The notes: generated from the sequence alone by a model not told the origin. A stretch of DNA of 64,000 nucleotides from a virus (IMGVR_UViG_3300016471_000834:1-64000), one strand, 5' to 3'. Shown: positions 5,526 through 36,212, counted from the stretch's first letter. Numbers and translations are program-made.

Positions 5526-5540
5526 TATCGGGACCGTTTA

Positions 5541-14751: not shown

Positions 14752-16499
14752 CCGATTGCGATTGCCACCCTTGCACCTCGCAGGCTCGCCTGTCCGGTGC
14801 TGTTATCGTTGAGTTCAACTCGAATCCAATAAACCTTGTCCATGCTACCTGAGATGGAGAGTCCGGTCGAACTGGCCACCAGGTCTCCCGTTGATGCCGC
14901 ACATGCGCACGTAGCATGTACAGTCGTCGCCGCCCCGTAAGCGTTGTCCCAGTCCTTGCTGTGAAGTTTCGCCTCGATCACCTGTCCGGAGGATGTCTTA
15001 TTCCCAGCCAAATAGACCTCAATGATCTTTTCTCCCTCTTGCAGCTCAATGCTGCGTGAGTGAAGATAACGTGAGGTGTTATCTGGTGAACTGCCACCAA
15101 AGTCGCCAATGTTCCCATTCGTGCCCATCGTCCACTCTTCATACGAGCTGGACGCCTTGGTCGAAATAGGAACGAAATCCATCGGGCCCAGGTTCACCCA
15201 CCGAGTGCGGAGAAGCCTTCCGTCAGCTCGGACTGCCAGCGCCGTGGCGTTCGCCAGGTTCTTGAAAATGAGCACATGGTCTGCATCTGCTCCGCCGTCA
15301 ACGATGCGTACGGCCTCAGCTGAGCCAAAGGCCCCTGTCAGCGCCTTTATCTGTGTGGTGGTCTCGAGGGCGCCCCACACTTTCATTTTGACTGTACCAG
15401 CAGCAGCGGTATTTTTCACGTCAACTGTGCTTAAAACACTCGCTTTATAGGCGTCGATTACAAAAGCAGAACCTGCGAGGTTCAGGAGGCTGATCTCTGC
15501 CGTTTGCACTCGGGTGGGTGCGCGTAACTCCGGGACCTGAGTGTAGTCGCCCCTGACCTGCAGATAATTGGTCCCCCCTGCGGTATGCAACCGTACGTGG
15601 GTCTGCGAGCTGGCGTCACTCGCATGGGTGGTAATGTCAATTTTGACCTGCCCAGAGTTGTCAGGAATGACCGTCATCGCGCGGTGACTGCCTGTGTCTC
15701 TGTGCTCGACGAGGAATGCGGAGATGTAATCACCGATGGACTCCAGGAGAACCTGGGAGCTGTTGTCAAAGACTTGGTTGATGCTGGTCCCGAACTGGAT
15801 GTAATTCGCGTCCGCCGCCATGCTCGAGGTCTTCACCGTGGGGCCCTTGATGAAGACCTTGTAATCGCTCGCGGTCGTGCTCGGAGTGGTCTGTCCAAGG
15901 TATCCGTTGACAGTGACCTTGACGGCACCGCTCGTGTAGGTGGCCGTGCCTGTGAAGATGGCGGCACTCGAGCCCGTCACGGGAGTTGCCAACCAGACCG
16001 TCACGGGCCTCGAGACAGAGCCACTGGTCCAGCCGGCACAGGCGACAGTCGTGAGGGTCAGCACGAGGTTGTTGCCGTTGACAACCACCGCATCAGGCTG
16101 CCCCAACTCCCCGATGTCCTCGATGTAGGTCCGATAGTATGGCAGTCCATCTGTGCCTGTGCGGACGACAGTCGGGACGAGGTTGGATCGGGCCGCGATG
16201 TAATAGGTCACGCCCCCTGTATTGGGATAGGGCACGTTGTTCCAGCCGCTCCCGCTCGAGGCCGAGAGTCGTTCCCCATTGCCGTTCCAGCCGGCCCAAG
16301 GGGATGTGGCCAGGGAAAACGTCAAGGTGGACATGGTGAAGCTCACCCTCGTCCCACCAAGCACGCCGCCGCCGCCCCACACATCCCCGCCCAACAGCCG
16401 CTGCTGCTCGGTAAGTCGATCGTCCAAGTTGTCGCTGAAGTCCTGCAGGCTCAGCAGACCCGCCACGGGAAGGTTGCTCTTGCTCTGTCCAGTTGCCAT
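14748..16499 (-). CDS. Tail fibre / baseplate-attached fibre protein
   Basis: Follows the gpI-like gene; beta-rich; carries the shared LGQ..ST..DY domain. Confidence 0.7.
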   Translation of the reverse strand: MATGQSKSNLPVAGLLSLQDFSDNLDDRLTEQQRLLGGDVWGGGGVLGGTRVSFTMSTLTFSLATSPWAGWNGNGERLSASSGSGWNNVPYPNTGGVTYYIAARSNLVPTVVRTGTDGLPYYRTYIEDIGELGQPDAVVVNGNNLVLTLTTVACAGWTSGSVSRPVTVWLATPVTGSSAAIFTGTATYTSGAVKVTVNGYLGQTTPSTTASDYKVFIKGPTVKTSSMAADANYIQFGTSINQVFDNSSQVLLESIGDYISAFLVEHRDTGSHRAMTVIPDNSGQVKIDITTHASDASSQTHVRLHTAGGTNYLQVRGDYTQVPELRAPTRVQTAEISLLNLAGSAFVIDAYKASVLSTVDVKNTAAAGTVKMKVWGALETTTQIKALTGAFGSAEAVRIVDGGADADHVLIFKNLANATALAVRADGRLLRTRWVNLGPMDFVPISTKASSSYEEWTMGTNGNIGDFGGSSPDNTSRYLHSRSIELQEGEKIIEVYLAGNKTSSGQVIEAKLHSKDWDNAYGAATTVHATCACAASTGDLVASSTGLSISGSMDKVYWIRVELNDNSTGQASLRGARVAIAIG

Positions 16500-16508
16500 C
16501 GTTCTCCC

Positions 16509-17642
16509 CTATGGATTCGGCCCGACCCGGGTCGGTGCAGTCCCGTCCGGGTAGATGATGGCCGTGCTCAGAGATGCAATGTTGTCTGTTCCCAATCGGG
16601 CAACCCAACCCAGCGCTCCCGCTGTCAGTCGTGAGCTGCCAACGTCCAGATAAGTCAACACTTCCGTCGCTTCGAGAAACACTCGAATCTCTGTGGTGGA
16701 TGAGTAGCTGTAGATCTCCATCCGCCACAGATATGGATAGGCAGCGGCAATACTCACTGGCACCGCAGAAACCAGCGTTGTATTGGCCGCGGACTTGCGA
16801 CGAACAAGCGCCACTGTGCGAGCGTCACCATCGATCTGCACAGAGTAATAGTTGCTACTGTCCGTGTAGTACAGTAGCACATCTACCAGACCTGTCACTC
16901 CGAGTCGAAGCCAGGCCAGATAATTGGTCCAAGTCGCCTCAATTCCGCCAAGATTCGCCACCCATTGGTAGTAGTCGGTCGCTGTAATCTCGGCGCGTTC
17001 GGCATCGTAACGCCCGGTCCCGGTACCACTGCCCGTCCATAGCGCTGTGCCTGAGAGGCCATCATCCACCATCCAGGCCCTGAGCACATTGTAGCGCTCG
17101 TTGTACGGTCGGACCACATTCAGCATTGCGTGTAGGAGGTCGGCGTTCACCGAGCCGTCAGGGTCCCCATACCAGACATCCATGACGTTCTCAGGGTGGT
17201 CGTAGTTTGAACTCTCCTCACCGCTTTCATAGGGAAGGATGACGATCTCCCCTGTGTGATTCTCAATGGCCCGGCGATAGAACCAGTCCAAGAGCACCAC
17301 ACGCGATCGGGCGATGGCTGCCGCCAGCACGCGCACAGCGTCATTTCGTCCCTTCTTTTTCCAGGTCGGGATGGCGATCTGGATCAGTCGCCTCAATTCG
17401 TCAGTCGACGCGATGTTTGCTGGGGCGAGATCGAGCCCCATGCCAACAAGGGCCGCCAAGTGCGGTACGAGTTCATCGGGGCAGTTGGCAGGGTCCAGGA
17501 GCCACGGCAACCGGTCCTTGCGCAGCTCGAGGTATACCTCCATTGCTGCGAGAGGTCCGACCAGACCCCGTAGCGCCTGCTCGCTGTCGTCCGTCCTCAT
17601 GTAGCCGGGCAGGTAGCCCAGCAATTCATCCATCCGCCCCAT
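16509..17642 (-). CDS. Baseplate wedge protein (P2 gpI-like) with C-terminal lectin-like beta-sandwich
   Basis: LLDPANCPDELVPHLAALVG...LIQIAIPTWKKKG typical of gpI. Confidence 0.8.
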   Translation of the reverse strand: MGRMDELLGYLPGYMRTDDSEQALRGLVGPLAAMEVYLELRKDRLPWLLDPANCPDELVPHLAALVGMGLDLAPANIASTDELRRLIQIAIPTWKKKGRNDAVRVLAAAIARSRVVLLDWFYRRAIENHTGEIVILPYESGEESSNYDHPENVMDVWYGDPDGSVNADLLHAMLNVVRPYNERYNVLRAWMVDDGLSGTALWTGSGTGTGRYDAERAEITATDYYQWVANLGGIEATWTNYLAWLRLGVTGLVDVLLYYTDSSNYYSVQIDGDARTVALVRRKSAANTTLVSAVPVSIAAAYPYLWRMEIYSYSSTTEIRVFLEATEVLTYLDVGSSRLTAGALGWVARLGTDNIASLSTAIIYPDGTAPTRVGPNP

Positions 17643-17651
17643 GATCCCCCC

Positions 17652-19835
17652 TTACGCTGTCACCGAATTGACGGTGATCGTGATGGTCCCAGGGACCGGC
17701 AACTCTGCGGTATCAAGCGTGACATCCACCCACCCCGAGAGCGAGATGTCGATCACCCCTACCGTCGCCAGAGTGATCGAGGTGTTGATGGCCGCGCTCG
17801 TCACCTTCCCGTTCCAGCGCCATTGGTAGCTGGTGGTTTCCGATGTTGAGCCGTCCGCATTCAGCTTGACCCGCTTTGCAGTCGGCTGAAGCGTCGCATT
17901 GAGCGCGGCCTCGATGGCAGCCTTGGCCGATGTGGCGTATTCCGAGAGGACATCCACCGTTGCTGTGACATTGATCGAGTGCGGGACGAAGGCCGCGCTG
18001 ACGACCTGGGTATTTCCCATCACCAGGCCGCCGATCCGCTGTACGCCCACCAGCTCGCCGTTGAAGTAGGTATCTAGCTCGGTAAGTTCTTCGGTCGTGG
18101 GGGCGACATTTCCATACCCCACGCAGATGAGCTTCAGCGTCTTCGCGCCGGCGCCCTCCTCAATGGCAAGGGCTCGAATGATGGTCTGAGAGCCATCGGT
18201 CTGGCGGAAGGCAACCGCCATCGTCTCCGCGTCTGTGGGCGTGACGACTCGCTCGAGCGTGCGGATGGAGGCCGGAAGCGCCACACGAAGCTCGGCCAGG
18301 GATTTATCCGTGGTGCCCTCCTGCACCACCCAGCCGCTGGCAGCTCGAGGATTGCGGATGTTGGTCAGTCGGCCGTTGCCCGACCGATCCTGCTTGATTT
18401 CCGACGCCCCAACGTTCCCGCTCTTGTCGGCGCCGTAGCGATAGGTCGCCTTCACCGTCTGGAGAGCCCCCGGAATGGCCCCGTTGGAGCCGTCTCCAAA
18501 CTCAATCTGCCAGGTTCCGTCTGCCTGCTCCTTCAGCGTGTAGACGCTTTCGTAGCTGGCGGACGTCAGCAGGTTCTTTACCCGCGCCCACTCCACCCCG
18601 CCCACCGTGAGACTCAGGAATTCGATCAGCGGGCTGCTGTTGAGGCTGAACGCCTGAGACGCAGTCCCCTCATCTGTCGTCCCGATGGTATCCTCGACGC
18701 GCTGCCCCTGGTAGACATGCCACATCAGGGTCCATGTCGTGCGGGAGGGTTCCGCCAGCGAGGAGAGCGAAGGGGACGTGGGGCTCGAGACCGCTGTCAC
18801 CCGGCCTCGAAGCCAAAAGCCCGCGACATCCTCGGTCCCGTTGCTGACGATCGAGGAAGCCCATCGGCGATCCGTCGTCTGTGGCAGCGTCCAGCTGACC
18901 TCTCCTGTTGAGCTCATACGGGTGGACCCGTCGCTCAGACCCGGCAATTCCGGCCAATTCGTTTCTACGGTGTAGTCCGCGGGGTTCGTGCTGGGCGAGG
19001 TCTGGCCCAGGTAGCTCGCCGTGGTGATTTTGTTGGTGCTCGAGTTGTAGGCGACGCTGAGCGTCTCTGACAGGCCTGTTGACAGGCATGTGACCTTGAC
19101 ACTGAGGCCGGTTGCGTTCGTCGTTCCGACAACCGTGCCGACTGCGAAGACCAGGGTGGAGCCAGCAATGGTGACGGTATCAGGAGCTCCTTCCCGGAGA
19201 TCGTCGTAATACTCCCAGCGCAGCGCCGTGATGTTCGTGGCCCCGGTCCCCAGGCTCAACTTCACCTTGTTCCACATCAGGCCCGCATGCCCGATGTAGA
19301 GCGCATCTCCGACCGCAGGTGTGCCCCCCCAAAGCGTTCCCGAGGTGTACGCCGTCTTCACTCCGCCGTCGTCCTGGATCATCGTCCATACGCCCGTGGG
19401 GCCGGCGTAGAGATCGGAATCCTCGACGTACTCAAACACCAGGGGAGTAGTCTGGCTTGTGCCGGACGTGCCACAGAGACTGTGCGCCCGGAGCAGTAGC
19501 GTGGAACCGCTGAGCGCCCCCGAGATGTCCGCCAGGACATCAGCCTCTGCCGGGATGGGGGGGGCGAGTGTATAGCCCAGGAGGTTGGCCGGGCCAAAGA
19601 AGGATTGACGCAGCCGGGCCGTCGCCGGATAGGTCTCTCGAGCGGCATGGTCGAGCCGGCAGGCCTGCAAATGACCGACCAGTGCCATGAGCGCCAAGAG
19701 GTTATTCACCGGGTCATGGGAATCGGTCTCTGTATGCTCAGGCCATTCCCGGCTCTTGACCTGCTTCAGCGCGGCCAGGAGATTCGGGTAGTAGATGGCT
19801 CCCCATTGGAAATCTGGCGTTGTGCTACTAGCCAT
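17652..19835 (-). CDS. Baseplate J-like protein with inserted domains
   Basis: N-terminal ATARLRQS...LLGY; IEFGDGSNGAIP; YRYGADKSGNV; RVVTPTDAE. Confidence 0.9.
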   Translation of the reverse strand: MASSTTPDFQWGAIYYPNLLAALKQVKSREWPEHTETDSHDPVNNLLALMALVGHLQACRLDHAARETYPATARLRQSFFGPANLLGYTLAPPIPAEADVLADISGALSGSTLLLRAHSLCGTSGTSQTTPLVFEYVEDSDLYAGPTGVWTMIQDDGGVKTAYTSGTLWGGTPAVGDALYIGHAGLMWNKVKLSLGTGATNITALRWEYYDDLREGAPDTVTIAGSTLVFAVGTVVGTTNATGLSVKVTCLSTGLSETLSVAYNSSTNKITTASYLGQTSPSTNPADYTVETNWPELPGLSDGSTRMSSTGEVSWTLPQTTDRRWASSIVSNGTEDVAGFWLRGRVTAVSSPTSPSLSSLAEPSRTTWTLMWHVYQGQRVEDTIGTTDEGTASQAFSLNSSPLIEFLSLTVGGVEWARVKNLLTSASYESVYTLKEQADGTWQIEFGDGSNGAIPGALQTVKATYRYGADKSGNVGASEIKQDRSGNGRLTNIRNPRAASGWVVQEGTTDKSLAELRVALPASIRTLERVVTPTDAETMAVAFRQTDGSQTIIRALAIEEGAGAKTLKLICVGYGNVAPTTEELTELDTYFNGELVGVQRIGGLVMGNTQVVSAAFVPHSINVTATVDVLSEYATSAKAAIEAALNATLQPTAKRVKLNADGSTSETTSYQWRWNGKVTSAAINTSITLATVGVIDISLSGWVDVTLDTAELPVPGTITITVNSVTA

Positions 19836-20208
19836 TGAGGCTCACCCCCATATTACGACGGCCCCCGGTCTCCAGGTCTTCATAGGTCACATCCACGTTG
19901 AGCTGTCCATCCTTGAAATCGACGTGGAGTCCGACGAGCCGGGCCCGGCGTGCCCGCTCGAGCCGTCCGAACCGCTCCCGGATGTCACCCTCCAACTGTA
20001 CACGATCTTCGAGCTTGGCGCCCTTAAATGCGCGATCTTGCACCCCAAGCTTGATCTGTTCCAGCCACGGGTGCATAGAGCCCGCGTCCTGCACAGTCAT
20101 CACGACCAGCTGTGCCAATGCTTCGTTTTCGTTGCTCGATACCGGGTCCGGCGTCATCTGCGCCGCGCCGTCAATGAGCACAGGAGGCCAGACCATTGTG
20201 CGCTTCAC
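19828..20208 (-). CDS. gp25/gpW-like baseplate wedge initiator
   Basis: Position, size, C-terminal GQLNVDVTYEDL; AGGAGG RBS before GTG 20208. Confidence 0.7.
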   Translation of the reverse strand: MKRTMVWPPVLIDGAAQMTPDPVSSNENEALAQLVVMTVQDAGSMHPWLEQIKLGVQDRAFKGAKLEDRVQLEGDIRERFGRLERARRARLVGLHVDFKDGQLNVDVTYEDLETGGRRNMGVSLNG

Positions 20209-20462
20209 TCGATACCTCCTGAGACTGAGCCTGTGGCAGTCGTTGTGCCCGTGCCGGATGAAGGTGTGACCTGCACAGGAATACCACTCGCCGCAATGGC
20301 ACTTCGTAACTGTGCATTCGTCGCAAGTTCGCTGACAAGAAATCCACAAAATGCTCGCCACATCGCCCGTGCTGTGTCTTCCTGGTCCTGGGTCGTGATA
20401 AAACCATGGTCAATGCACCAGTCGACAAAGGCATCTGCGGGTCGGTCGCCATTCATCGCCAT
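20205..20462 (-). CDS. Small baseplate-associated protein (possible spike tip)
   Basis: Directly after the spike gene; C-terminal IPVQVTPSSGTGTTTATGSV. Confidence 0.5.
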   Translation of the reverse strand: MAMNGDRPADAFVDWCIDHGFITTQDQEDTARAMWRAFCGFLVSELATNAQLRSAIAASGIPVQVTPSSGTGTTTATGSVSGGIE

Positions 20463-20465
20463 TGG

Positions 20466-21071
20466 CTACTCCTTGATCGTCGCCAGCTGTGCGCGGAGCT
20501 GGCCGAACGTCGTCTGCGTTGCAGGGTCAAGGGGCTGAGGCCCCAGGGCTGTCGCCGTCAGCGCGGTCTGGAGCGCTCTGATGAGCGCGTCCAGAGTTCC
20601 CACGACGTCGACCGTGGCGCTGCCCAGATACACCTTGCCGCCCGTCACCAGCCGAGTCTTGCTGTCGGTCAGGCTCAGGCTTGACTTCGGCCCCTGAAGC
20701 AACAACTCCGCAGCGCTCACGAGCTCGACATTGGCTCCGGTCTCGAGGGCCAGGTAATGACTCCCGTCCTGCGAGGCCAGTCCGACTCGAGCGGGGTAGT
20801 TCGCTTTGAACGGCTCCGGGATGGTATTCACCGATCCCACCGTCGCCGGCCCCCAATAGAGAACGCCATCCTCCTCCTCGACGATGACCACGGAATCCAC
20901 CGGGGGAATCCACCACAGACCGCCGCCTTTGCCGATGTGCAGGCGCGGGGGAATCCACTCCGGATAGGCCTCATCCGGGCCGCTGTAGCCGCCGATCAGC
21001 AGCTTCAGATACCCGGGCCGCTCCGAATCGTCGTTTGCCTGCACTACGGCGCTATAGTAGCGCACGCTCAT
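20466..21071 (-). CDS. Baseplate spike (gpV/gp5-like OB fold)
   Basis: YSAVVQANDDSERPGYLKL...PEWIPP...WWIPPVDSVVIV. Confidence 0.8.
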   Translation of the reverse strand: MSVRYYSAVVQANDDSERPGYLKLLIGGYSGPDEAYPEWIPPRLHIGKGGGLWWIPPVDSVVIVEEEDGVLYWGPATVGSVNTIPEPFKANYPARVGLASQDGSHYLALETGANVELVSAAELLLQGPKSSLSLTDSKTRLVTGGKVYLGSATVDVVGTLDALIRALQTALTATALGPQPLDPATQTTFGQLRAQLATIKE

Positions 21072-22258: not shown

Positions 22259-23040
22259 CAGTATGCCACCTCCCCGGCCAGCACTTCAGGTAGCATGTCC
22301 CAGGTCATGCCCGCGTCGCTCGAGGTGCCTCGAGACCTGGCAAGGGTCTGCACAACGTCCGTCCAGTTGTCGCCGAGGAATGGGAGGGAGAGCGGCTCCA
22401 CCTCCTCCTGCATGCGCTCGTGATCCGCCTCGAGCACCTTCACCTTGTCGCCGGCCTGTTCGAGCCGGGAAGCGATGGATGGGTTTTCGCGCCTGATAAG
22501 CTCGCCCTTTAGGGGATCGAGCCCCATCTTCAGGGCGATGTGCTCAAACGTCTCCCCATCCCCCAGGGTCAGGTATTGGGTTTCTCCCGGGGCCGGAGAG
22601 CTCAACTCGAGCTGCACATCAGGAGCTTCCGTTACCTCAATGTCAAAGGTGAAGCCCTTCATGAAGCCAGTGGCGTAATAGCCGACCACCTTCAGGCTCT
22701 TGCTCGAGACGTAACCCCGGATGGATGTCCCGCCCCAGGTGAGCAGAATCTTGGGGGCACGGCCCAGCGTGCTGTCCCGCACGTTTAGCCGGTCCACCAG
22801 GTCATACGTGCTCTGGATGTTCGTCATGCAGTCCTGCGCTTTGAACTCGGCGCTGAACCGCAGCACGCGCTCTGTATTCGAGATCCACTGCACAGCGGGC
22901 GCAACTGTGCCGGGGGTGCTGATGGAACCGAGCTTCGCGCCTTTGCTGACCTCTATCCCTTCAGGCTTGTACTGCCCGACGATGGTGAGCTGCACCTGAG
23001 AGTCAAGGGAGACAATGCTCCAGAGCAGATCCTGGGCCAT
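22258..23040 (-). CDS. Tube-initiator/CIS-tube protein with LysM-like C-terminus
   Basis: PAVQWISNTERVLRFSAEF; APKILLTWG; YLTLGDGETFEHIA. Confidence 0.7.
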   Translation of the reverse strand: MAQDLLWSIVSLDSQVQLTIVGQYKPEGIEVSKGAKLGSISTPGTVAPAVQWISNTERVLRFSAEFKAQDCMTNIQSTYDLVDRLNVRDSTLGRAPKILLTWGGTSIRGYVSSKSLKVVGYYATGFMKGFTFDIEVTEAPDVQLELSSPAPGETQYLTLGDGETFEHIALKMGLDPLKGELIRRENPSIASRLEQAGDKVKVLEADHERMQEEVEPLSLPFLGDNWTDVVQTLARSRGTSSDAGMTWDMLPEVLAGEVAY

Positions 23041-23041
23041 C

Positions 23042-26180: not shown

Positions 26181-26212
26181 TTGCCTGTCCTCTCCCTTGG
26201 GTTACGCAGAGA

Positions 26213-26656: not shown

Positions 26657-26679
26657 TTACGTCTCCTTCCTGGCATCGA

Positions 26680-29412
26680 TTAAGCCGCGCCCTGAACCGC
26701 CACGCCCTTGCTGCCCACCGACACGATCACCCGCTCCGCGGTGTTCACGATGTCGAACGCGATGTCGATGTGCATATTCCCCTTCTCGCGTTCGCTGACG
26801 GGGTTGTTGCTCGAGTCCACCTTGATCGACACCTGCTTGTCGAAGGTTGGCCCCTCAGAATCGTCAAACCAGCCAGCAACAAACCAGTCCTGGAACAGCG
26901 TCCGCAGCAGGTAGCGGGACTGTGCAAAGGTGCCATCGTTGATCGGCCTGAACTCGAGCTGATCCAGACCCGTCAGAAGCGTCTGCACCACATGACCGAT
27001 GGCGAGCTCCTTGTGCTTCCACAGTCGACCCTGATAGCCGGGAATCCGGTCCCCTCGCACGGTAATGACACTGCCTCGAGCACGAATCTCGATGAGCCCG
27101 TAGCTGTTCAGCGCCTCGTTGTTGAGCACCGTCTTGCCCGTTGGAAGGCTCTTGACGGTCGGGCTCAGTGTATAGTCGGGGCCGGCTGGCGCCAGATGAA
27201 CGCCCTTGTTGACGACGGCAAGCGCCGCTTCCTTGCCCATGATGAGCCCGGTCAGGCTCGCCAAGTACAGCCCGGTTCCATAGGGATTGGTGATGTACCC
27301 GTAGCTGGGCCAGTGGATGGCGTGGGCGTCCTGAGCCTCCCCGATCTTGAGGTTCGTTTCATGCCAGGCGATGGCTCCCGATTCTGTCGTGGTCCCGCTC
27401 GGGATTTCAGTGTATGCCATCATCCCCTTCTGAAAGGCGTACTGCATGAGCTGCGCCTGAGCCGTCGCGTCCGTCACACCCGGCATGGCGAGCTTCAGCA
27501 TGCCCGTGGGGTAGGGCAGAATGTTGTTGATCAGACTTGTGTTGCTGTCCAACTTTGCCACGTAGGTGCTCGCGGCGACGCCAGCAATGCCATCGTAGCC
27601 ACCGGCCAGAGCCTGACGGTATTGAATGCGCCCGATCTTGCCAGCCACTCCGATCAGTGCCTCAGCATTCGTGAAGCCAACGACTGCATTCAGAGTCCCG
27701 TTTCCGATGGTGAGCGTAGCCGTGTTCCCGAAGTCCTGGGCGCTCGAGATCCGTAGTTTGTTGCTCTCTGCGGTAAAGACCACCACGACATCCGAAGCCA
27801 CACCACTCACACGGGTCAGCTCAAGCCCGTTCAGATGATCCGCCAGCTGCTGAGCCGTCTGGGAGCTGGTGAGCGTCGATGTGAGCGTAATCGGAGATCT
27901 GCCTTGAGCCGTGAAAATGAGAGTCTGTCCGTTCGAGAGAGTCCAGGGGCCGGCAATGCTGCCAAGTCGCGTCGGAGCCGACGGGGGCACTACGAGTCCC
28001 GTCAGGTTAATCCCGGTCTGCAGCGTGATCGTGTCGTAGGTGTTCCCCACGATGAGGTACCGGTTCCGGACGTTCCCCTCGCTCGATGCCGCTGCGGGGT
28101 AGTAGTAGGCGCCGCCCTTCGACTGATGCAGGTTCGTCGGGAGAGGCCGGGCGTAGATGAAGAGCTTGTCACCGCTGACTGCGTTCACGCCACCGGCTCG
28201 AGCGGTGAAGCCTGGGAGCCAGGGGTGCTGTGCCGCATAGGCCATCCCCAGGGTGCCGTTGGGCAGTCCGACAACGGAATAGCCGCCCTCCTCCATGACC
28301 GCCGAAACGGTGAACGTGGTGGAGTTCGTGAACGTCAAGGTGATGAGGCATGGCCTGGGGTCGGACCCCCAGGTGACATCATTCACGGTGTCAACGTAGG
28401 GCGTCCCCGTACCTGTGCGCGTCCACCGCAGCACCTGAAACTTGACCTGGTTCGTGGAGATCATCCCGTTCGGGGCCGGGATCTCCGCGAAATTCGCCGG
28501 TCGGGCGAGCATGTCAGCCGGGTCTCCGACGTAGCTGTCCGTGACCGAGATCTCGTAGTTGTCGGTGTCGTCCTCGATCGAAGACTTCCAGTACCTCTTC
28601 CCGCTGGAGTCGAGCGCCAGATTCTCCCAGCCCGAACGGGGGGCGTCCCCATCGCGGTACGGGTAGAAGGAGAAGTAGCTGTTAGGGTTCTCGCCACCAT
28701 CCGAGATCTCCACCTCCAGCGCCTCCGCCATCCCGGTGATCTCGTTGGTATTCACGAGCTCCATGTTCCAACGGCCATCGCTGGGGTTGCTCAGACTCGA
28801 GTCGAACGTCCCGTCGATGGTGAACACGCCCTGAGCCGTGTTGGAGATGACCCGGTAGGCCGCCGCGGGGACGTCCTGGGGAAACTTCAGCATGGCCCCG
28901 ACCCAGGCATTCGCCTTGGTGGTAAAGCCGAGGTTGACCGTGGTCGTGCTGGTAACGGCGCCGGCGCCGATGTCTCCAGCCATGACGGCGCGTCGACCAC
29001 CCCAGCGCCCACCGTTGTGCGCGCTGATGGTACCCAGGTCGGCATAGACAATGTGGGGAGCCTGCTCCACGACCGACGTATCCACCTTCCGACCGCGAAG
29101 AGGCCTTGATGCCTTCACATCGGTGCCATCGGTGACACGCAGGATGTGCAACTCCCCGGCTCCCTCGCCAGCAGAGTAGTAGTGCTCGCAGCATAGGGGA
29201 GCTTGAGAGGAAGTGGTCAAGCCTCCATAGATCCGCCTGTACTGGCTGAGGCCGCTCTCGAGGCTGATGACCTTGTCGGTCGGGCCGCTGCGGAAAATAC
29301 CCAGAATGACAGCACCCCCATAAGGGCCCTGCTCGATGGGTCGCGCTGCCGCCTTGCGCACTACCTGCGTACCCACTCCCTTGATGGCACCGAACACCCG
29401 CGTCTGACTCAT
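26680..29412 (-). CDS. Contractile tail sheath protein with large insertions
   Basis: C-terminal AIHWPSYGY...HLAPAG...NEALNSYGL...FRPINDGT...KGNMHIDIAFDIVNTAERV. Confidence 0.92.
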   Translation of the reverse strand: MSQTRVFGAIKGVGTQVVRKAAARPIEQGPYGGAVILGIFRSGPTDKVISLESGLSQYRRIYGGLTTSSQAPLCCEHYYSAGEGAGELHILRVTDGTDVKASRPLRGRKVDTSVVEQAPHIVYADLGTISAHNGGRWGGRRAVMAGDIGAGAVTSTTTVNLGFTTKANAWVGAMLKFPQDVPAAAYRVISNTAQGVFTIDGTFDSSLSNPSDGRWNMELVNTNEITGMAEALEVEISDGGENPNSYFSFYPYRDGDAPRSGWENLALDSSGKRYWKSSIEDDTDNYEISVTDSYVGDPADMLARPANFAEIPAPNGMISTNQVKFQVLRWTRTGTGTPYVDTVNDVTWGSDPRPCLITLTFTNSTTFTVSAVMEEGGYSVVGLPNGTLGMAYAAQHPWLPGFTARAGGVNAVSGDKLFIYARPLPTNLHQSKGGAYYYPAAASSEGNVRNRYLIVGNTYDTITLQTGINLTGLVVPPSAPTRLGSIAGPWTLSNGQTLIFTAQGRSPITLTSTLTSSQTAQQLADHLNGLELTRVSGVASDVVVVFTAESNKLRISSAQDFGNTATLTIGNGTLNAVVGFTNAEALIGVAGKIGRIQYRQALAGGYDGIAGVAASTYVAKLDSNTSLINNILPYPTGMLKLAMPGVTDATAQAQLMQYAFQKGMMAYTEIPSGTTTESGAIAWHETNLKIGEAQDAHAIHWPSYGYITNPYGTGLYLASLTGLIMGKEAALAVVNKGVHLAPAGPDYTLSPTVKSLPTGKTVLNNEALNSYGLIEIRARGSVITVRGDRIPGYQGRLWKHKELAIGHVVQTLLTGLDQLEFRPINDGTFAQSRYLLRTLFQDWFVAGWFDDSEGPTFDKQVSIKVDSSNNPVSEREKGNMHIDIAFDIVNTAERVIVSVGSKGVAVQGAA

Positions 29413-30755
29413 GGCATCACCTCGTTGGTAAGAACTCCCCCCTCGCGCACGAGGTAGGTCGTGATGAGATCTTGAACCGGGAAAACCCAGAATGTCAACA
29501 AAACTGTTGCTTGTTGCTCATATATACCCCCGCTATCGGGTGCTGTATCGTTGAATTCGTCAACCAGCACGACTTCAACGACTTCTCCCGACGCCGGGCT
29601 GAGCATTGCCCGGTATCCAGCAGAGGTGAACCACGCCCGCAAAGAATCGACCAGGCGACCAACATCGGAACGCAGCTCTCCGATCACTCGCAGGTTCAGC
29701 CGGCGACGCACATGCGTGCGAGCTGGCATGACGAGGGCCGTTGGCGGGTCCGCATACAGGTCGCGGATGTAGATGTCCTCTCCGCCGTCGAGGGCATCCT
29801 CGATGGACTGGCCGAGCACCAGCACCGATGGCAGTTTGTCGACCTGTACAATATCCCGGTGCTGGGACACGACGATATGCGGAGCATACCGAAACTCGAG
29901 CCGATAGGCGTGTCCGGATGGGATGGGATCGTCAGGAGTCCATACGCCATCGGCGTAGACTCCTGACAGCTCTGTCTCTTCCGCAGGGTCCGCGGTCTGG
30001 TCAAACGCAGCGTCCACCCCTGTGACATCGTAGGTCCACTCGTCGCCTGGTACCGCAATGGAAGCGAGCTCGCTCTCGGCGGTGGATTCGATGACCCCGG
30101 TGGCGCTGATGCTCGCCCGCAGGCTTGCCAGGACTGTGCGGACCAGGGCGTCATCGTAGGCATCGATCTCGACGCATCCATACGCGAGCCGCGCCCCGTA
30201 AAAGGATGGAGTCACCTCTGGATCGTCCGTGGAGAGCTTGACCACGATCTGGATGATCCTGCTCGATGCCGAGAGCCCGGCGATGTTGCTCTGCAGGAGC
30301 TGCCCGGTGGACCAATGATCATCGGTCGTAGCCACTGCCCAGGCCGTCCCGTTCCACCACCATTCGTCTGAGCCATCAAACACGCGGAAGCTCACTGCGC
30401 TGCCCGTTGGAGCCTCCCAATAGAGCTCGAGCGCCTTCCAGGCTCGAACAGCAGATGCCTCGAGCACAGGAGTGCGAGCGGTGCGAGATCCCCCTGCAAA
30501 GTCATCGTCGATCACGTAGTGGCCGCTGACCTTTGGCAGCCTAGCTCGAGCCGTGAACATCATGCCTTTGCAGGCGTTGAAAAACATCCCTCCCAGCCCA
30601 CTGCCCGCGGTATAGGAGGGGGACAGGAGCTCCCATAGCACATCTTCGGAGTCAGGGCCTCGCTCGAGATCGGGCACATCCTGGCCGCTGTACAGACGCA
30701 ACGTCTTTTCATCCAGGAGCAGGTCGGCCACATGAATCTTGAGGACTCGAGCCAT
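29409..30755 (-). CDS. Tail terminator/completion-like protein
   Basis: Position upstream of sheath; C-terminal KLPSVLV...LNLRVIG. Confidence 0.5.
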   Translation of the reverse strand: MARVLKIHVADLLLDEKTLRLYSGQDVPDLERGPDSEDVLWELLSPSYTAGSGLGGMFFNACKGMMFTARARLPKVSGHYVIDDDFAGGSRTARTPVLEASAVRAWKALELYWEAPTGSAVSFRVFDGSDEWWWNGTAWAVATTDDHWSTGQLLQSNIAGLSASSRIIQIVVKLSTDDPEVTPSFYGARLAYGCVEIDAYDDALVRTVLASLRASISATGVIESTAESELASIAVPGDEWTYDVTGVDAAFDQTADPAEETELSGVYADGVWTPDDPIPSGHAYRLEFRYAPHIVVSQHRDIVQVDKLPSVLVLGQSIEDALDGGEDIYIRDLYADPPTALVMPARTHVRRRLNLRVIGELRSDVGRLVDSLRAWFTSAGYRAMLSPASGEVVEVVLVDEFNDTAPDSGGIYEQQATVLLTFWVFPVQDLITTYLVREGGVLTNEVMP

Positions 30756-31477
30756 TACGCGGCCTCCCTGAATGCCTGCTCAACAGCGTTCGTCCAGCGC
30801 TCTTTGACGTAGCCCTGGAAGGTTGCATCTCGAAGCACGGCCTCGAGGAATGGTCGTCCAGGGATGACCCAGATCCCGGGCTTGCCGCTGGCGCCACCCA
30901 GGCCGAAAAGCATGTCTGTTGCCGCCGCGTTCATGGCCTTGCGCTGTGCAGGCTTTCGCTCGCTGATAGAGACCATCGCCCGCCCAACCTCCGCAAGAAG
31001 GCGCTCGCGCTCTTCAGGCTTGTTGCGCATGTCCATCGTGAAGCCATCATGGAGCCGCTGCGCGATGGATACCTGCTCCTCCCCCACCTCTGTCTTGATG
31101 ACGCCAACCCGTAGCTCAAACGGGTTCTGCAGCTTGTAGCTGATGGCCTTGATGAGGTTGCCGTGATGGACGAGGGGCGTACTCGATCCCTTCAGAATGA
31201 TCGTGATGGGCGAGTTCGGAGCATACTCCTTGGCTCGAATCTTTCGCACGGCCATCGCCCTGAACTTCATCCCGATGGCTTCGTTTGCGTTCCGAACACG
31301 AGCCGTGAGGACTGGTCCAAAGACCGCCCAATTCAGTGCACGATCCATCCGGTCCCAATCCCCTGAGAGGACAACACCGCTTTCGCCAGAGCCGCCCCCG
31401 CCGCTGCCCGCCGCTCCACCGCTCGAGCCTCCAGTGCCCTTGATAAAGCGGCCTTTGCTGTCCCTCATCGCTGGCAC
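30755..31477 (-). CDS. Virion morphogenesis/neck protein (Mu gpG / HK97 gp10-like)
   Basis: APNSPITIILKGSSTPLVHHGNL...IPGRPFL. Confidence 0.75.
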   Translation of the reverse strand: MPAMRDSKGRFIKGTGGSSGGAAGSGGGGSGESGVVLSGDWDRMDRALNWAVFGPVLTARVRNANEAIGMKFRAMAVRKIRAKEYAPNSPITIILKGSSTPLVHHGNLIKAISYKLQNPFELRVGVIKTEVGEEQVSIAQRLHDGFTMDMRNKPEERERLLAEVGRAMVSISERKPAQRKAMNAAATDMLFGLGGASGKPGIWVIPGRPFLEAVLRDATFQGYVKERWTNAVEQAFREAA

Positions 31478-31908
31478 TATAAGCCCTCCTTGACTGTGCG
31501 GCTTGGGGGCCGGGTCTTTGCAACGGCTGTGACCGTCTTATCCGCATGGAACTCCGCAGCGTCCGGCTTTGCCAGCTCGAGGTACCAGTTACAGGTCGTG
31601 ATCAGTCCGGCCCGGTCTCGATAGCCGATCATAAAGTCGCCATCAGCTGGCGAATAGCCGAGTCGCGTCAGGTCTCGACGAAGGAACACCACATCGGCCT
31701 GGGCGTCCAAGCGGGCGCCTCCAGGGTACATGGCTCGACGGTTCTCGCTGATGACGTCGACCTGTGCTGGGATCTCCACAAGGTCACCTCGAGCGATGTA
31801 TGTCGACGGCTCCCGGAGCAGATCATCGATGCGGGTGGATGACCTGGCGATGGGCCTGATGAGCACTGTGCGCGGGTTGATCAGGCGAGCTCTCATGGCT
31901 TCTTGCAC
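31477..31908 (-). CDS. Head closure (stopper) protein
   Basis: Position and size; DDLLREP...AQV...FLRRDL...GD. Confidence 0.6.
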   Translation of the reverse strand: MQEAMRARLINPRTVLIRPIARSSTRIDDLLREPSTYIARGDLVEIPAQVDVISENRRAMYPGGARLDAQADVVFLRRDLTRLGYSPADGDFMIGYRDRAGLITTCNWYLELAKPDAAEFHADKTVTAVAKTRPPSRTVKEGL

Positions 31909-32210
31909 CTCCGACGACTGTGCGGGGGCAATATGAGCGGGAGAACGTGTTGCGGCATGGGCCGCATTTCGTACTCTCCATCAATCCCCTGGTTTCTCAG
32001 CTCTGCCATGATGGCTTCCGCCTCCACCCGGCTCGGTACCAGCAGCGGCTGGCCCGGCAGGAGTTGCCATCCGCGCACCCATCGTGGTATGGACGATCCT
32101 CGTGCCACAATGGCCTGGCACTGGTTGTGCTTACACCATTCGGAAGACCAGTCCACCGATTTCGTCGACACTGGCGACCCCCACAAAGGGCGGGCGCTTG
32201 TACTTGGCAA
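31893..32210 (-). CDS. Possible small hypothetical protein (true start uncertain)
   Basis: Fills the gap between adaptor and stopper; no clear RBS. Confidence 0.3.
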   Translation of the reverse strand: MPSTSARPLWGSPVSTKSVDWSSEWCKHNQCQAIVARGSSIPRWVRGWQLLPGQPLLVPSRVEAEAIMAELRNQGIDGEYEMRPMPQHVLPLILPPHSRRRCKKP

Positions 32211-32919
32211 TAATCTGGTCGACGATTCTGTCTCCCGTGAGGCCCCCGGACATGCCTATCTGCGCCACCATGTACCCACGCCCGTGGGTGTTTTCCTGCG
32301 CGATAAAATGGCGCCGCTTGTCTTCCTGCGCGTCCGCGTCACCCTCGTAGGGAGACAGGATCTCCACGAGGCGAGCGATAGCTTTCAGAATGAGGCCCGG
32401 GGTTGTTCCATCCTCCTCGAGATAGCCCCAATCGGCCGTCACATGGACGTTCCGAGTGCCACGGGACCATTTCGCAGTGGGGAACAGGCTACTCAGCGAT
32501 GCGCCGCTTTGGCCTGTGAGCTCGATATACGGATCTTGGCGGGGGTCGTCGAACCCAGCAAACCCGACGCCATCATTGATTCGAAGATCGTCCACGTCGA
32601 TCTCAGTGGCGTTATCACCCTCGCCCACCGTCACCGCCGTGACTCCTGTGCCTCCCTGGGCAGTGGATACAACAGGTAGCGGAAGCTCGAGCCGCCTTTT
32701 GCCAGTCCCGTCGATATCCAGTGTACCGTTGCGCTTGAGGAAGAATCGCCCGGTGGCCGCATGAAAAGTTTGCACAGCGTCCCGGAGTAGAACCTCAAGC
32801 CGAGCGTTTGAGGGGCTTGAAGTCCATTGCGGACCCAGGTAGTCCGACCGGAGGGCGCTGAGTGCGAGCTCTTTCGTGCTGCCAAAGTAGCGCCAAGTCT
32901 CGATCGCTTCAAGTGCCAT
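32131..32919 (-). CDS. Head-tail adaptor/connector
   Basis: TGRFF...WSRGTRNVHVTADWGY...TPGLILKAIARLV. Confidence 0.75.
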   Translation of the reverse strand: MALEAIETWRYFGSTKELALSALRSDYLGPQWTSSPSNARLEVLLRDAVQTFHAATGRFFLKRNGTLDIDGTGKRRLELPLPVVSTAQGGTGVTAVTVGEGDNATEIDVDDLRINDGVGFAGFDDPRQDPYIELTGQSGASLSSLFPTAKWSRGTRNVHVTADWGYLEEDGTTPGLILKAIARLVEILSPYEGDADAQEDKRRHFIAQENTHGRGYMVAQIGMSGGLTGDRIVDQIIAKYKRPPFVGVASVDEIGGLVFRMV

Positions 32920-32937
32920 ATGCCAACCCCTCAGAGT

Positions 32938-32970
32938 AAAAGGCCCGGCACCGCTCTCACGGCCCGGGCC
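32938..32970 (-). terminator. Rho-independent terminator after capsid/decoration genes
   Basis: GGCCCGG...CCGGGCC followed by TTTT on the minus strand. Confidence 0.65.
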
Positions 32971-33002
32971 AGTCCTGCCAACATGCCGGTCGCTGGGCCA
33001 AA

Positions 33003-33893
33003 TTACTGTACCAGCTCCTCAAGATCCAACTCAATCGCCAACCGCCCCTCCGCGAAGGCCGTCACGCTGGCGATCACGAGGGAAAGGCTATCGCCGGGAG
33101 CGAAGGCATTGTTGGCGCTGGCCGCGCTCAATGCGGTCACAGCACCGATGGTCTTCGTGCCAGCGTAGGTGGCCGCGAGGCCACTGATCGCCGTGCTGCC
33201 GATCTTGAAGCTCAGAGCCGCCGTCTTGCTACCGGTCGTGATGGCCTTCTCGCAGATGACCCGGCCACCGGTGATACGGCCGTGGATCTTCGGCAGAGGC
33301 AGAGTGATGAACGGGTCGGCATTGGCCAGGTCCGCCGCGTCGAAGGAGCCCAGGCGAAGCGACTGGAACGGACGATAGAACGACTTCGAGCTGACCGGGT
33401 CCTTCAGATAGCTCGAGCCCACGCTCTTGTAGGACGGATCCAGCTCATAAGAGCGCCGGGTCCGATCCAGGGTTAGTGTTACCGTCGAACTCGAACGCAC
33501 GAACTTCGCGTCGCCGCAGATCTGGTAGCTGTAATCACCGATGGCCGACTCGAGCGCCGACTCCGAGATGATGGATGTGCTCCCAGTGGTGCCTGGCGTT
33601 CCGGTGATGACCTTGCTGAAGAGGCCGTTCACTTCTGGCACGTAGTAGATGACGACCGTGGCGCGAACTTCGTACCCATCGGCTAGAGTGCTGTTGTCGT
33701 AGGGCTTGAGATTGTTCTCGCCCGGAAAGTACTGCACCTTCCCATCGATCACCGCTTCACCGGGCTCAAGATCGAGCCTCAGCGCGTTCGAGGCCTGAGC
33801 CACGCTGGGGTGCAGCAGGTGAAGACCGAAGAGCCGATTGACGCCCATGACGCTGTGAGGTGTCACAGACTCCTGCCTGTTGTCCAACCGCAT
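33003..33893 (-). CDS. Probable capsid decoration/accessory protein
   Basis: Beta-rich two-domain protein in the head cluster; strong RBS. Confidence 0.55.
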   Translation of the reverse strand: MRLDNRQESVTPHSVMGVNRLFGLHLLHPSVAQASNALRLDLEPGEAVIDGKVQYFPGENNLKPYDNSTLADGYEVRATVVIYYVPEVNGLFSKVITGTPGTTGSTSIISESALESAIGDYSYQICGDAKFVRSSSTVTLTLDRTRRSYELDPSYKSVGSSYLKDPVSSKSFYRPFQSLRLGSFDAADLANADPFITLPLPKIHGRITGGRVICEKAITTGSKTAALSFKIGSTAISGLAATYAGTKTIGAVTALSAASANNAFAPGDSLSLVIASVTAFAEGRLAIELDLEELVQ

Positions 33894-33919
33894 GAAAAAC
33901 CTCCTGCACCTCGTGGGTG

Positions 33920-34861
33920 CTACTTCAGATGGGCCTGCACAGCGGCCACGAGATCATTCCAGCTCATGCTCTTGGCGTTCTCCGGCAGAGGAATCCCGGC
34001 CTTCCGCGCTTCGGAGCGGAGCGACATCACGGACTTGGACGGACCCGCGATCAGGGCTCTCACCTTCTCGAGGGGGTCCGCAGAATCACCACCAGAGCCG
34101 GACTGGTGCAACGGCTCATCCTCCAGGTCGGCAGCGGAGAGGCCTTCGCCCGGGCTGCCTGAACGCTCAGGCAGGGAGGACACTTCGGGACGAGGTGACG
34201 GCGCTGGCTGGACAGGCTTGCCTGGTTCCTTCTCGGGCTCTTTCACCTTCACTTCTTCCTGACGCGGCTGCTCAACCACGGGGGGGGGAGCCTTCGCAGG
34301 AGGCGGTGTGGGTGCAGGAGCACGGGCAGATCCCAGGAGCACGTCCAGCACGTCCTCATCAGTCAACAGCAGGAGCGCTGACACGATCGCGATAACTGTC
34401 GTTTTCCGCTGGGGTCGAGGTAGTCCCTCAACCCAGGCAGTGACTTCCGCAACGCGCTCAGCAGATGACAACTCTCGAGGCGGCTCAGGGGTGGGAACCT
34501 GCAATGTCAGGCCCGATGGAACGAGCCCGGCAAGCAGTGGCCCCACATCGTTGGAAACGGTCTCATAGATCGCCCGCGCTTCTGGCGAAAGCTCGGAGAG
34601 CATGGCACCAACTTCCATCAGCGACTTGCGGAGGACCCCTACCACGCGCATGGCCGTTTCACGAGGCTCATGAGCTGTGATGGGAATGCCTCCCGGCGCG
34701 TCGTGCCCGTGAGTCTCCACGCACTTCCAGGCAGGGTCCTGCCGAAGTGTAAGAGCAGAGGGGGACGACAGAGCCACAGTTATTTCCGCACCGCGATGAT
34801 ATGTCTGCCCCTCAAAGACTCGGCTGTGCGCCGTCAGAGTCGCCTTTAGAATCCGTGCCAT
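33920..34861 (-). CDS. Hypothetical protein with Pro-rich linker and C-terminal Rho-N/HeH-like domain
   Basis: KSVMSLRSEARKAGIPLPENAKSMSWNDLVAAV; immediately after MCP. Confidence 0.6.
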   Translation of the reverse strand: MARILKATLTAHSRVFEGQTYHRGAEITVALSSPSALTLRQDPAWKCVETHGHDAPGGIPITAHEPRETAMRVVGVLRKSLMEVGAMLSELSPEARAIYETVSNDVGPLLAGLVPSGLTLQVPTPEPPRELSSAERVAEVTAWVEGLPRPQRKTTVIAIVSALLLLTDEDVLDVLLGSARAPAPTPPPAKAPPPVVEQPRQEEVKVKEPEKEPGKPVQPAPSPRPEVSSLPERSGSPGEGLSAADLEDEPLHQSGSGGDSADPLEKVRALIAGPSKSVMSLRSEARKAGIPLPENAKSMSWNDLVAAVQAHLK

Positions 34862-34916
34862 GCCTTCATCTCCTCGCCATAGTGCGCAGGCGTTACATCA
34901 GGCCGTCAGTCCGGGA

Positions 34917-36212
34917 TTAGAACTCCTCAACCGGGATGACCACGCCGTCCTGTAGAACCATCGCGTCGGGGTTGAAGAGAATGACGTCCATCTCCCAATA
35001 AACGTCGAAGCGAATCCGCTCGAACTCCTGCTCAAACTTCCGGTACACTCGGACGCCACCGTCCCCGGACCGGGTGCACATGACGAAGCAGATGTTCTTG
35101 GGGTTCGTCAGAATGATGGACGTGCAGTCCACCACGTCAAGCGTGTAGTCGCTCGCGGTCGTGCTGATGGTCGACTGGCCCAGGGTGCCCGACGCGGTCA
35201 CGTACAGGTGGCTGGACTCTGCCGTCACGCTCAGCGTCTCGCTCTTGCCGGTGGCCACGCAGGTGAGCTTGACCTGGCGTCCGACGTGAGTGCTGTTGTA
35301 CCCGCCGAAGAGCGTATCCACCTGGGCCTTGACCTTGCCGGAGCTGTTGGTCACGGCGTCCGCTGCGGACGTGCTCTTGTTCAGGGTGCTGAAGCCCTGG
35401 GTGTTCGGAAGCTGGGGCACCAGCAATGGCGCGATACCCTGGGGATTGTACCGAAGCCGCTGCTCGGTGAGGCCCCGCAGAGAGCCAGCGTTACCCTGAG
35501 CGGCGAATTCGTTGACCTCCCAGGTGAACTCCTGGTCGATTCCGGGGTGGACCATGAACCGCAGATTCGGATCGTCGACATACTCGACCGGCATCTTCTG
35601 CTGGATGGCCTTCCACACGTTCCTGGCGTAGGTCTTCCCGTAGTCCGTGGTCCGCCGAATGGCCTTCGACCGGGCCTGAACCAGCACACCATCGGACCCA
35701 ACCAGGAGGCGATTCTCCCTGGTGCTCAGATCGGTGATGGACTTGTCGCCCCGGATGATGACCTTACCGAGCGAGTTGGCGAGCTTCCGAGCAAACAGGG
35801 TGACCACGGCCTGCTGGAAGTTCTGCGTCCCCGACGCCCGTGCCTCGCTGATGTCCTCGAGGGTCAGGTAGAAGGTGGACTGGTACTTCGTACAGGAATA
35901 GGCCCGACGATCCATGCTTGGGCTCGAGGTGATGGTCTTGCCGTCGTTCTCCTTGACGGCCTCCGCCACATCGCCGCTGATGTCTACGGTCGGAATCTCG
36001 CCAGACCGCTGCTCGCGCAGCCGATAGCTGACCTGGCTCAGCCACTGCACATTCGCCGTCGCCAGCACGACGAGAGATTCGATCTGGGGCCGGTTCATAA
36101 ACTGACCGACCTGCACGGACGATGTCGTGATGACGCTCGGCTCCGCAGCCTTCAGCGCATCATGCCCGGCAAGCGTGGCTCCGGCGCTGTTCAAAAGCTC
36201 CTGGTTATTCAA
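34917..36212 (-). CDS. Major capsid protein (HK97 fold, P2/XkdG-like) with ~80-aa insertion
   Basis: GQFMNRPQIESL; LANSLGKVIIRGD; IILTNPKNI; RIRFDVYWEMD. Confidence 0.9.
   Translation of the reverse strand: MNNQELLNSAGATLAGHDALKAAEPSVITTSSVQVGQFMNRPQIESLVVLATANVQWLSQVSYRLREQRSGEIPTVDISGDVAEAVKENDGKTITSSPSMDRRAYSCTKYQSTFYLTLEDISEARASGTQNFQQAVVTLFARKLANSLGKVIIRGDKSITDLSTRENRLLVGSDGVLVQARSKAIRRTTDYGKTYARNVWKAIQQKMPVEYVDDPNLRFMVHPGIDQEFTWEVNEFAAQGNAGSLRGLTEQRLRYNPQGIAPLLVPQLPNTQGFSTLNKSTSAADAVTNSSGKVKAQVDTLFGGYNSTHVGRQVKLTCVATGKSETLSVTAESSHLYVTASGTLGQSTISTTASDYTLDVVDCTSIILTNPKNICFVMCTRSGDGGVRVYRKFEQEFERIRFDVYWEMDVILFNPDAMVLQDGVVIPVEEF

Follow-up and report, generated by a model that had tools for sequence, protein, structure and literature searches.

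A predicted beta-barrel domain shared by the capsid, baseplate wedge and tail fibre proteins of an uncultured contractile-tailed phage

Three copies of one domain in the structural module

The window analyzed here comprises the first 64 kb (64,000 nucleotides) of the 87,765-bp linear virus record IMGVR_UViG_3300016471_000834, which has a G+C content of 60% and a completeness of 86% according to CheckV. Its structural module is located on the minus strand and includes the genes of a major capsid protein (MCP), a baseplate-J-like wedge protein (BpJ) and a tail fibre, each of which carries one copy of a domain of ~77 amino acids (AA), termed the barrel in the following. The module starts with a scaffold/protease-like gene, followed by MCP, two unknown proteins, head-tail adaptor, neck, a sheath of 910 AA, tube, tape-measure and hub proteins. 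After the hub proteins, it continues with BpJ, a P2 gpI-like protein, the fibre of 583 AA and small downstream genes. The J-like, I-like and fibre genes of the window are arranged in the same order as genes J, I and H of phage P2. Coordinates of all features are listed in Table 1.

The initial annotation had assumed a single domain of ~80 AA in MCP, baseplate J and fibre, and the minus-strand translations on which it was based were exact. The three copies align over their full length with 16 invariant columns and have the signature PDxV ... GRxVxV ... TGxSE ... N ... LGQxxxST(T)AxDY. Pairwise BLASTP searches with composition correction gave E values of 1e-14 for MCP/BpJ (43% identity), 8e-8 for MCP/fibre and 1e-8 for BpJ/fibre. 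To avoid circularity, three further profiles were built, one for each host family (i.e., the family of the protein carrying the barrel), and the window's own copies were left out. Each of these profiles recovered the other two copies in a six-frame translation of the whole 87,765-bp genome with E values from 1e-10 to 3e-19, and the next best match had an E value of 0.6. The genome contains exactly three copies, a fourth being found nowhere in its 87,765 bp. Comparison of the family profiles with each other using hhalign resulted in probabilities of 99.7-99.8% and E values from 1e-26 to 5e-29. Judged by these comparisons, the three segments are one homologous domain. A chance resemblance of Thr/Ser/Gly/Val-rich beta segments without any shared domain would be in line with the bias of the segments towards T, S, G, V and A, but is refuted beyond reasonable doubt by the composition-corrected E values, by the independent profiles, which match nothing else in the genome, by the hhalign probabilities and by the retention of the motif in 279 representative proteins (see below).

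The identity of 20 out of 21 nucleotides between the capsid and the fibre copy (35145-35165 versus 15861-15881), which had been pointed out before, is real; the peptide STTASDY is encoded in both. In the MCP/fibre alignment, the same codon is used at identical residues 10 times, compared to 9.4 times expected from codon usage. Codon sharing is also at expectation for BpJ/fibre and mildly raised for MCP/BpJ (19 versus 12 expected). Since codon sharing between MCP and fibre matches the expectation, the 20/21-nucleotide identity does not indicate that DNA was transferred recently. For all copies, gene conversion or a recent transfer was rejected on the basis of these codon counts, including the mildly raised value of MCP/BpJ.

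Table 1. Position of the three host genes, the barrel copies and accompanying features in the window.
Feature	Position	Strand	Remark
Major capsid protein (MCP), 431 AA, HK97 fold, P2 gpN family	34917..36212	-	phrog_1623, E 4e-21
Capsid copy of the barrel, MCP AA 283-359	35136..35366	-	insertion relative to P2 gpN
296-AA protein, two genes downstream of MCP	33003..33893	-	no family match
Baseplate-J-like wedge protein (BpJ), 727 AA	17652..19835	-	phrog_219 baseplate wedge, E 4e-15
Baseplate copy of the barrel, BpJ AA 217-291, flanked by ...LRWEYYDDLREG and TNWPELPG...	18963..19187	-	
P2 gpI-like baseplate protein, between BpJ and fibre, without barrel	16509..17642	-	PF09684 Tail_P2_I, E 5e-6; TIGR01634, E 8e-4
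Tail fibre / receptor-binding protein, 583 AA	14748..16499	-	position of P2 gpH, after the gpI-like gene
Conserved N-terminal anchor of the fibre, ~133 AA, always precedes the barrel	16101..16499	-	found by jackhmmer in all 67 fibre-type representatives
Fibre copy of the barrel, AA 134-216, plus the 8-residue loop typical of fibre copies	15852..16100	-	

Predicted fold and capsid insertion site

The structure of the barrel was predicted with AlphaFold2. The input was an alignment of 70 rows with checked columns, which consisted of the trimmed copies from the window and 17 loci as well as full-length MCP homologs. The resulting model is a compact six-stranded beta-barrel with a mean predicted local distance difference test (pLDDT) value of 97.7 and a predicted template modelling (pTM) score of 0.85. 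The strands are short (residues 4-7, 12-15, 31-36, 42-46/48-50, 53-57 and 74-76) and the LGQxxxST motif is located on a well-defined coil (58-70). According to this model, the barrel is a self-contained, confidently folded domain, predicted to form a closed beta-barrel.

No Pfam family matched the barrel at E values up to 10, and searches against PHROGs and with a sequence profile against the PDB gave nothing significant. Searching NCBIfam with the three whole host proteins gave no match specific to the barrel. On the structural level, Foldseek found nothing significant (best E value 0.3 against the PDB and 0.085 against BFVD). VIA-align, run against 48,161 representative chains, gave a best Z score of 5.5, and a second look at the top 1000 Foldseek matches gave 5.6. 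The best of these matches (Z 5.0-5.6) are the N-terminal domains of V1/F1-ATPase and FliI subunits and the barrels of periplasmic membrane-fusion proteins; they align 63-73 residues with a root-mean-square deviation of 2.8-3.3 Å and 6-15% identity. The recurrent matches, which also include barrels of aminopeptidases and FAD-binding proteins, are six-stranded closed barrels. The notes accompanying VIA-align state that a Z score below 8 may indicate a common arrangement only. Because the best score of 5.6 is below this level, the barrel is considered a small generic beta-barrel without a recognizable relative, and its likeness to the ATPase, FliI and membrane-fusion protein barrels is confined to the common arrangement and implies neither function nor descent.

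Four known families were inspected individually. For E1_FCCH (PF16190), there was no Pfam match at E values up to 10, and no E1 chain was among the matches listed by the two VIA-align searches (best 50 each). The immunoglobulin (Ig) superfamily gave no Pfam match to the barrel; the top fold matches are closed barrels and the few Ig-type chains appeared only with E values above 1. Carbohydrate-binding families likewise gave no Pfam match, and the fold match to CBM56 reached only Z 3.8 or E 1.2. The family of the P22 coat protein (PF11651) matched neither the barrel (E values up to 10) nor the MCP. Scores in the ESM Atlas were 0.81 or less, i.e., at chance level; a lead from this search, a cluster with P22_CoatProtein in 43% of its members, had a score of 0.81 and was discarded. 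The initial annotation, which knew of no described family, was borne out by these searches, and the barrel appears to represent a new and well-delimited domain family.

The capsid copy was said to be inserted into the MCP, and comparison with P2-type capsid proteins agrees with this. The MCP profile matches the capsid proteins of the P2 family (7oz4 with E 3e-10; 7jw1, gpN, with E 2.6e-7), and the MCP model has an HK97 fold (pLDDT 85), being closest to P2 gpN (7jw1, Z 21.5 over 283 aligned residues) and phiRSA1 (7oz4, Z 21.4). These two are the closest solved relatives of the MCP, and both are without the barrel. PF05125 is recorded on the MCP homologs P0014, P0032 and P0037; the MCP of the window has no Pfam match above the cut-off. 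The alignment of the MCP profile with gpN ends at gpN residue 284 (VRVPYFPAD versus ...VPQ.P..), just before the barrel. After this point, 73 residues follow in gpN versus 159 in the MCP, which is ~75 AA longer in total. Relative to P2 gpN, the barrel is a true insertion.

The coat proteins of the P22-like phages P22, CUS-3 and Sf6 have an HK97 fold, the A-domain of which accommodates an inserted I-domain, a six-stranded beta-barrel (PMC9965877, PMC11243222). In P22 gp5, the I-domain (222-345) is followed by parts of the A-domain (346-357), the P-domain (358-416) and again the A-domain (417-430) (PMC9965877). The MCP model continues after the barrel with a short strand, a hairpin of two long strands and a strand at the C-terminus. 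Because the order of elements after the insert matches that of P22 gp5, i.e., a short A-domain strand, a P-domain hairpin and a C-terminal A-domain strand, the barrel is tentatively placed at the I-domain site in the A-domain. Thus, a P2-type MCP apparently carries the modelled barrel where P22 carries its I-domain. The six strands of the barrel model would be a further likeness. In both cases, the capsid protein has an HK97 fold, and the insert is a conserved, integral part of the coat rather than a separate decoration protein. In contrast to the I-domain, the barrel has 77 instead of ~124 residues and no equivalents of the D-loop or S-loop. It shows no sequence similarity to the I-domain, and the protein containing it is of the P2 gpN family. 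In addition, the barrel of the window has paralogs in a baseplate protein and a fibre; the P22 I-domain is not known to have such paralogs.

Distribution, placement and age of the barrel

As proposed by the initial annotation, a profile of the three copies was searched against metagenomic proteins. It was scored against 1.84 billion cluster representatives with a threshold of E 1e-3. At this value or better, 279 proteins were found, and the barrel motif is kept across all of them. The best 150 of the 279 representatives were classified with the barrel masked; they fall into the same three protein families, in which the barrel is found at fixed positions. MCP-type matches have ~420-480 AA and carry the barrel at ~275-365. 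BpJ-type matches have ~700-750 AA with the barrel at ~215-300 (n = 48 in the retrieved set); fragments, a subclass of ~800 AA and two proteins with tandem copies (see below) are grouped with them. In the fibre-type matches (n = 67), the barrel is located at ~133-217. A second search, in a set of 5.8 billion clusters, returned the same three protein classes. The contigs carrying the barrel reach ~50-115 kb. Among cultured phages (INPHARED), a tblastn search with the MCP of the window had no match; matches to BpJ cover only its C-terminal half, and the one in Chryseobacterium phage MA9V-1 is without the barrel. Two scans of the GTDB species genomes yielded a single copy (L021:194-409; JAGQSS010000284.1), which is located on a 4.8-kb contig of a metagenome-assembled genome of Ilumatobacter sp. 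Owing to its short length, this contig could stem from a prophage as well as from wrong binning, and it hints only weakly, if at all, at the bacterial host. The barrel can serve as a marker of a clade of contractile-tailed phages known from metagenomic and IMG/VR contigs; these phages are uncultured, and no contig of the clade corresponds to a cultured phage of the INPHARED set.

BpJ was compared with TIGR02243, which matches with an E value of 4e-25 and 88.4 bits and thus scores below the curated cut-off of 155.8. By the curated rule, BpJ would be classed as a relative of this family, not as a member. It also weakly matches the baseplate J-like protein of PDB entry 9gtp. The alignment to TIGR02243 covers profile positions 7-89 and 322-547, and the unaligned middle part spans 233 profile positions versus ~243 residues of BpJ. 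Since both lengths are similar, the TIGR02243 family may carry something else at the place of the barrel. The initial annotation had described the baseplate copy as nested in another inserted domain, between WEYY and WPEL; the TIGR02243 alignment does not show such nesting. A subclass of BpJ proteins with 796-821 AA (P0073, P0075, P0087, P0113, P0159 and P0179), as well as L003:10001-10243, has ~90 extra residues just upstream of the barrel. Hence, this region of BpJ is a further hot spot of sequence additions. Two proteins, P0080 (881 AA) and P0036 (304 AA), contain two barrels in tandem; P0080 matches the BpJ of the window over nearly its full length, and P0036 matches no protein of the window outside its barrels.

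The fibre barrel is not an insertion; it follows the N-terminal anchor as a module arranged in series with it. The remainder C-terminal of the barrel varies from 231 to 1791 AA in the 67 fibre-type representatives. In relatives, this part contains beta-helix (PF13229, PF05048), pectate-lyase (PF12708), Kelch or endosialidase (PF12219) domains. The fibre barrel thus belongs to the constant, baseplate-proximal part, with the distal parts being exchanged among depolymerase beta-helix, Kelch and endosialidase types. The constant proximal position next to swapped distal ends argues against a role as host-specific receptor-binding module.

A maximum-likelihood tree was calculated from 183 copies. 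In this tree, 70 of the 71 fibre copies form one clade and 58 of the 59 MCP copies another, with the BpJ copies in between. Copies from one genome never cluster. As grouping follows the host protein and not the genome, the triplication is considered old and concerted evolution absent. The triplication of the barrel dates back a long time, and the three copies have been passed on vertically ever since, each firmly built into its virion protein. Consistent with this placement, a search with the full-length MCP found 31 homologs of 426-445 AA, and the barrel is at the same place in all 17 of those aligned. A search for MCP homologs without barrel, using MCP residues 40-275 as query, returned 3 proteins only and was uninformative.

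Conservation was measured as mean pairwise identity. In the less biased full-length MCP set, it amounts to 49% for the core, 54% for the barrel and 71% for the last 20 residues of the barrel, which contain the C-terminal motif. Compared to its two flanks, identity of the barrel is 47% versus 38/43% in MCP and, in sets retrieved through the barrel itself, 39% versus 31/35% in BpJ and 47% versus 31/25% in the fibre. Nine positions are conserved in all families, namely V5, G29, L62, G63, Q64, S68, T69, D73 and Y74, the last of these at 100%. Tyr74 is the sole invariant aromatic residue. The extra loop residues of the fibre copies (8 in number) follow after position 38. The initial annotation had described the domain as mobile, which is wrong on a recent timescale, given that the copies group by host protein, have fixed positions and are conserved at least to the level of their hosts. 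Its other points are supported in that the segments are one homologous domain, which should share one fold, is present on three different virion proteins and is inserted in the capsid protein.

Co-occurrence of the copies is based on five genomes, i.e., the window, G001, G002, G003 and L017. All three copies are present in the window and in G003 (57 kb). For L017 (20 kb out of a 104-kb contig), the copies in BpJ and fibre are visible. Wherever the genes of BpJ and fibre are both visible, both have the barrel (5 of 5 genomes). In the related phages G001 and G002, BpJ and fibre each contain a barrel, but similarity of the MCPs to the MCP profile ends at position 270. Exactly where the barrel would be, the MCPs of G002 (L023:1087-2280, minus strand) and G001 (L026:1156-2505, plus strand) contain a different insert of 76-79 AA (…TDYTLDATNGTIARIGGGAIGDGDTVKVTY…). 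Neither the barrel nor BpJ is related to this insert as judged by hhalign (probability 2%) and BLAST (E values above 0.02). Since these two capsids are without the barrel, the capsid copy is confined to a subclade, and its site is a hot spot of accessory domains.

The product of 33003-33893 had been suggested as a binding partner of the barrel. Homologs of this protein were found in G003 and L028. None was detected in G001, G002 or L037, though the MCP of L037 has the barrel, and the protein was rejected as a universal partner. Possible identities are a decoration protein of the head or a neck protein, specific to the clade. No other gene was found which tracks the presence of the barrel.

Possible roles of the barrel and accompanying genes

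The leading interpretation, held tentatively, is that the barrel is a rigid structural or assembly knob, which makes inter-subunit contacts on the outside of each assembly. Its two conserved ends, PDxV at the start and DYxV at the end, probably pair to form a two-stranded neck, and this neck would allow the barrel to plug into a loop of its host protein and to project from the particle surface. The capsid copy could act as built-in reinforcement or folding aid, in the manner of the P22 I-domain, and the copies at the baseplate rim could be part of the joint of the fibre shoulder with the wedge. A structural or assembly role is favoured because the barrel is more conserved than its hosts and is found in the constant proximal part of the fibres. 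Several points weigh against it. The outward orientation, the neck and the inter-subunit contacts are inferred by us, and no contact was seen. The three assemblies differ in symmetry (5/6-fold, 2-fold and 3-fold), so that no common interface is evident. The polar loop (L62, G63, Q64, S68, T69, D73, Y74), which is strongly conserved, could just as well be a ligand site. Furthermore, this type of virion can do without the capsid copy, since some relatives use a different insert, and the conservation values of BpJ and fibre are subject to ascertainment bias.

If the loop were a ligand site, the barrel could be a generic adhesin with low affinity for a common surface or matrix carbohydrate bound via LGQ...ST...DY, displayed many hundred-fold on the head and additionally at baseplate and fibre shoulder. 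Such a part is played by Ig-like domains (Hoc, Big_2, FN3) on other phages. Also put forward by the initial annotation, as a multivalent adhesin, this is a serious alternative, though less likely than the structural role. The distribution over capsid, baseplate and fibre is the one known for Ig-like domains on phage particles, the loop is nearly invariant in spite of the different quaternary surroundings of the three copies, and tandem copies in some baseplate proteins (P0080, P0036) would be expected if avidity matters. Weak Foldseek and VIA-align matches include accessory domains of carbohydrate enzymes and CBM56; however, the fold matches do not rise above chance (E values of 0.3 or more, Z scores lower than 4), no carbohydrate-binding family is matched by sequence, and Tyr74 is the only invariant aromatic residue. 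Moreover, the barrel is more conserved than its host proteins, while the receptor-binding ends of the fibres swap freely, and a ligand on the host surface would need to be constant across very different surfaces. The initial annotation had also considered a shared docking site for a decoration or fibre protein or a head-to-tail interaction module. One docking site for a single partner and an obligatory link of head and tail are both disfavoured, on account of the unrelated capsid insert in G001 and G002 and the absence of the 33003-33893 product from G001, G002 and L037. A common platform, on which the three copies offer the same surface to one further virion protein (decoration, cement or fibre), is improbable. 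It would explain the surface motif common to the three copies, and the conserved 296-AA protein near MCP in the window, G003 and L028 would be a candidate. Yet this protein has no detectable homolog in G001 and G002, which keep the tail barrels, or in L037 with its capsid barrel, no other gene follows the barrel, and the capsid copy is absent from G001 and G002, whose capsids carry the unrelated insert, while the tail copies stay.

Alternatively, barrels might bind barrels through one lateral interface, such that fibre copies dock on baseplate copies and possibly on capsid copies to stow the fibres; this is also improbable. BpJ and fibre copies were always found together where both genes are seen, and the nearest fold class comprises the N-terminal barrels of F1/V1-ATPases, which pack side by side into a crown. 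However, the fold match is generic (Z 5-5.6), paired copies are known from only five genomes, G001 and G002 lack the capsid copy, and the symmetries of the three assemblies disagree. An elaboration of this idea, in which the LGQ...ST...DY lateral surface of a self-associating connector braces and crowns each capsomer, joins the fibre shoulder to the wedge and docks fibres on the head where the capsid copy is present, is judged unlikely. If true, a single homotypic 'Velcro' domain would organize three parts of the virion.

Plugging a small beta domain into several virion proteins is a known phenomenon, represented by Ig-like domains and the P22 I-domain, and the barrel is not a new kind of system. 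Ig-like domains on the capsid, baseplate and fibre proteins of phages were reportedly surveyed by Fraser et al. in 2006 (J Mol Biol). The barrel resembles the Ig-like virion domains (Big_2, I-set, FN3; T4 Hoc, phi29 gp8) in that these are small beta domains on capsid, baseplate and fibre and are displayed on the particle surface, as the barrel would be. In contrast to them, it is predicted to be a closed barrel and not an Ig sandwich, matches no Ig family in Pfam, exceeds its hosts in conservation and has fixed positions across the clade in three proteins of one phage. New are the domain family itself, the apparent I-domain site of a P2-type MCP, the triple placement conserved throughout the clade and the different filling of the capsid site in relatives. 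With 279 representative clusters and a very confident predicted fold, the family can now be named in metagenomic phage proteins. The barrel is a second, unrelated beta-barrel at the apparent P22 I-domain site, here in a P2-type capsid protein. Since two relatives have a third, unrelated insert at the capsid site, accessory domains in general seem to be accepted at this loop of the HK97 fold. One domain which is more conserved than its three hosts, and which resides in the constant part of fibres with swapped ends, poses a clear structural question.

Some further observations concern the genomic surroundings. The record starts with a very G-rich sequence (window 1-60) with runs of 7-9 G, which may be an artefact of the contig end or of the assembly; no terminal repeat was found between both ends of the 87.8-kb record. 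Directly after MCP, a protein of 313 AA (33920-34861, minus strand) contains a long low-complexity middle part rich in Pro, Ala, Lys and Glu. It is weakly conserved, with 29% identity over 124 AA in L028. The tail sheath (26680-29412, minus strand) is unusually long, and the match to the tail sheath family phrog_23 comprises only residues 639-744. The sheaths of G001 and G002 align only to the C-terminal ~300-340 residues. As the matches are confined to the C-terminal part, the N-terminal two thirds are made up of additional domains. In L037, a smaller relative, the sheath has 569 AA. In the syntenic relative represented by L028 and L029, a gene at 4459-6915 encodes a MuF-like head protein upstream of MCP, for which the precomputed Pfam list gives an ADP-ribosyltransferase domain of toxin type (PF03496).

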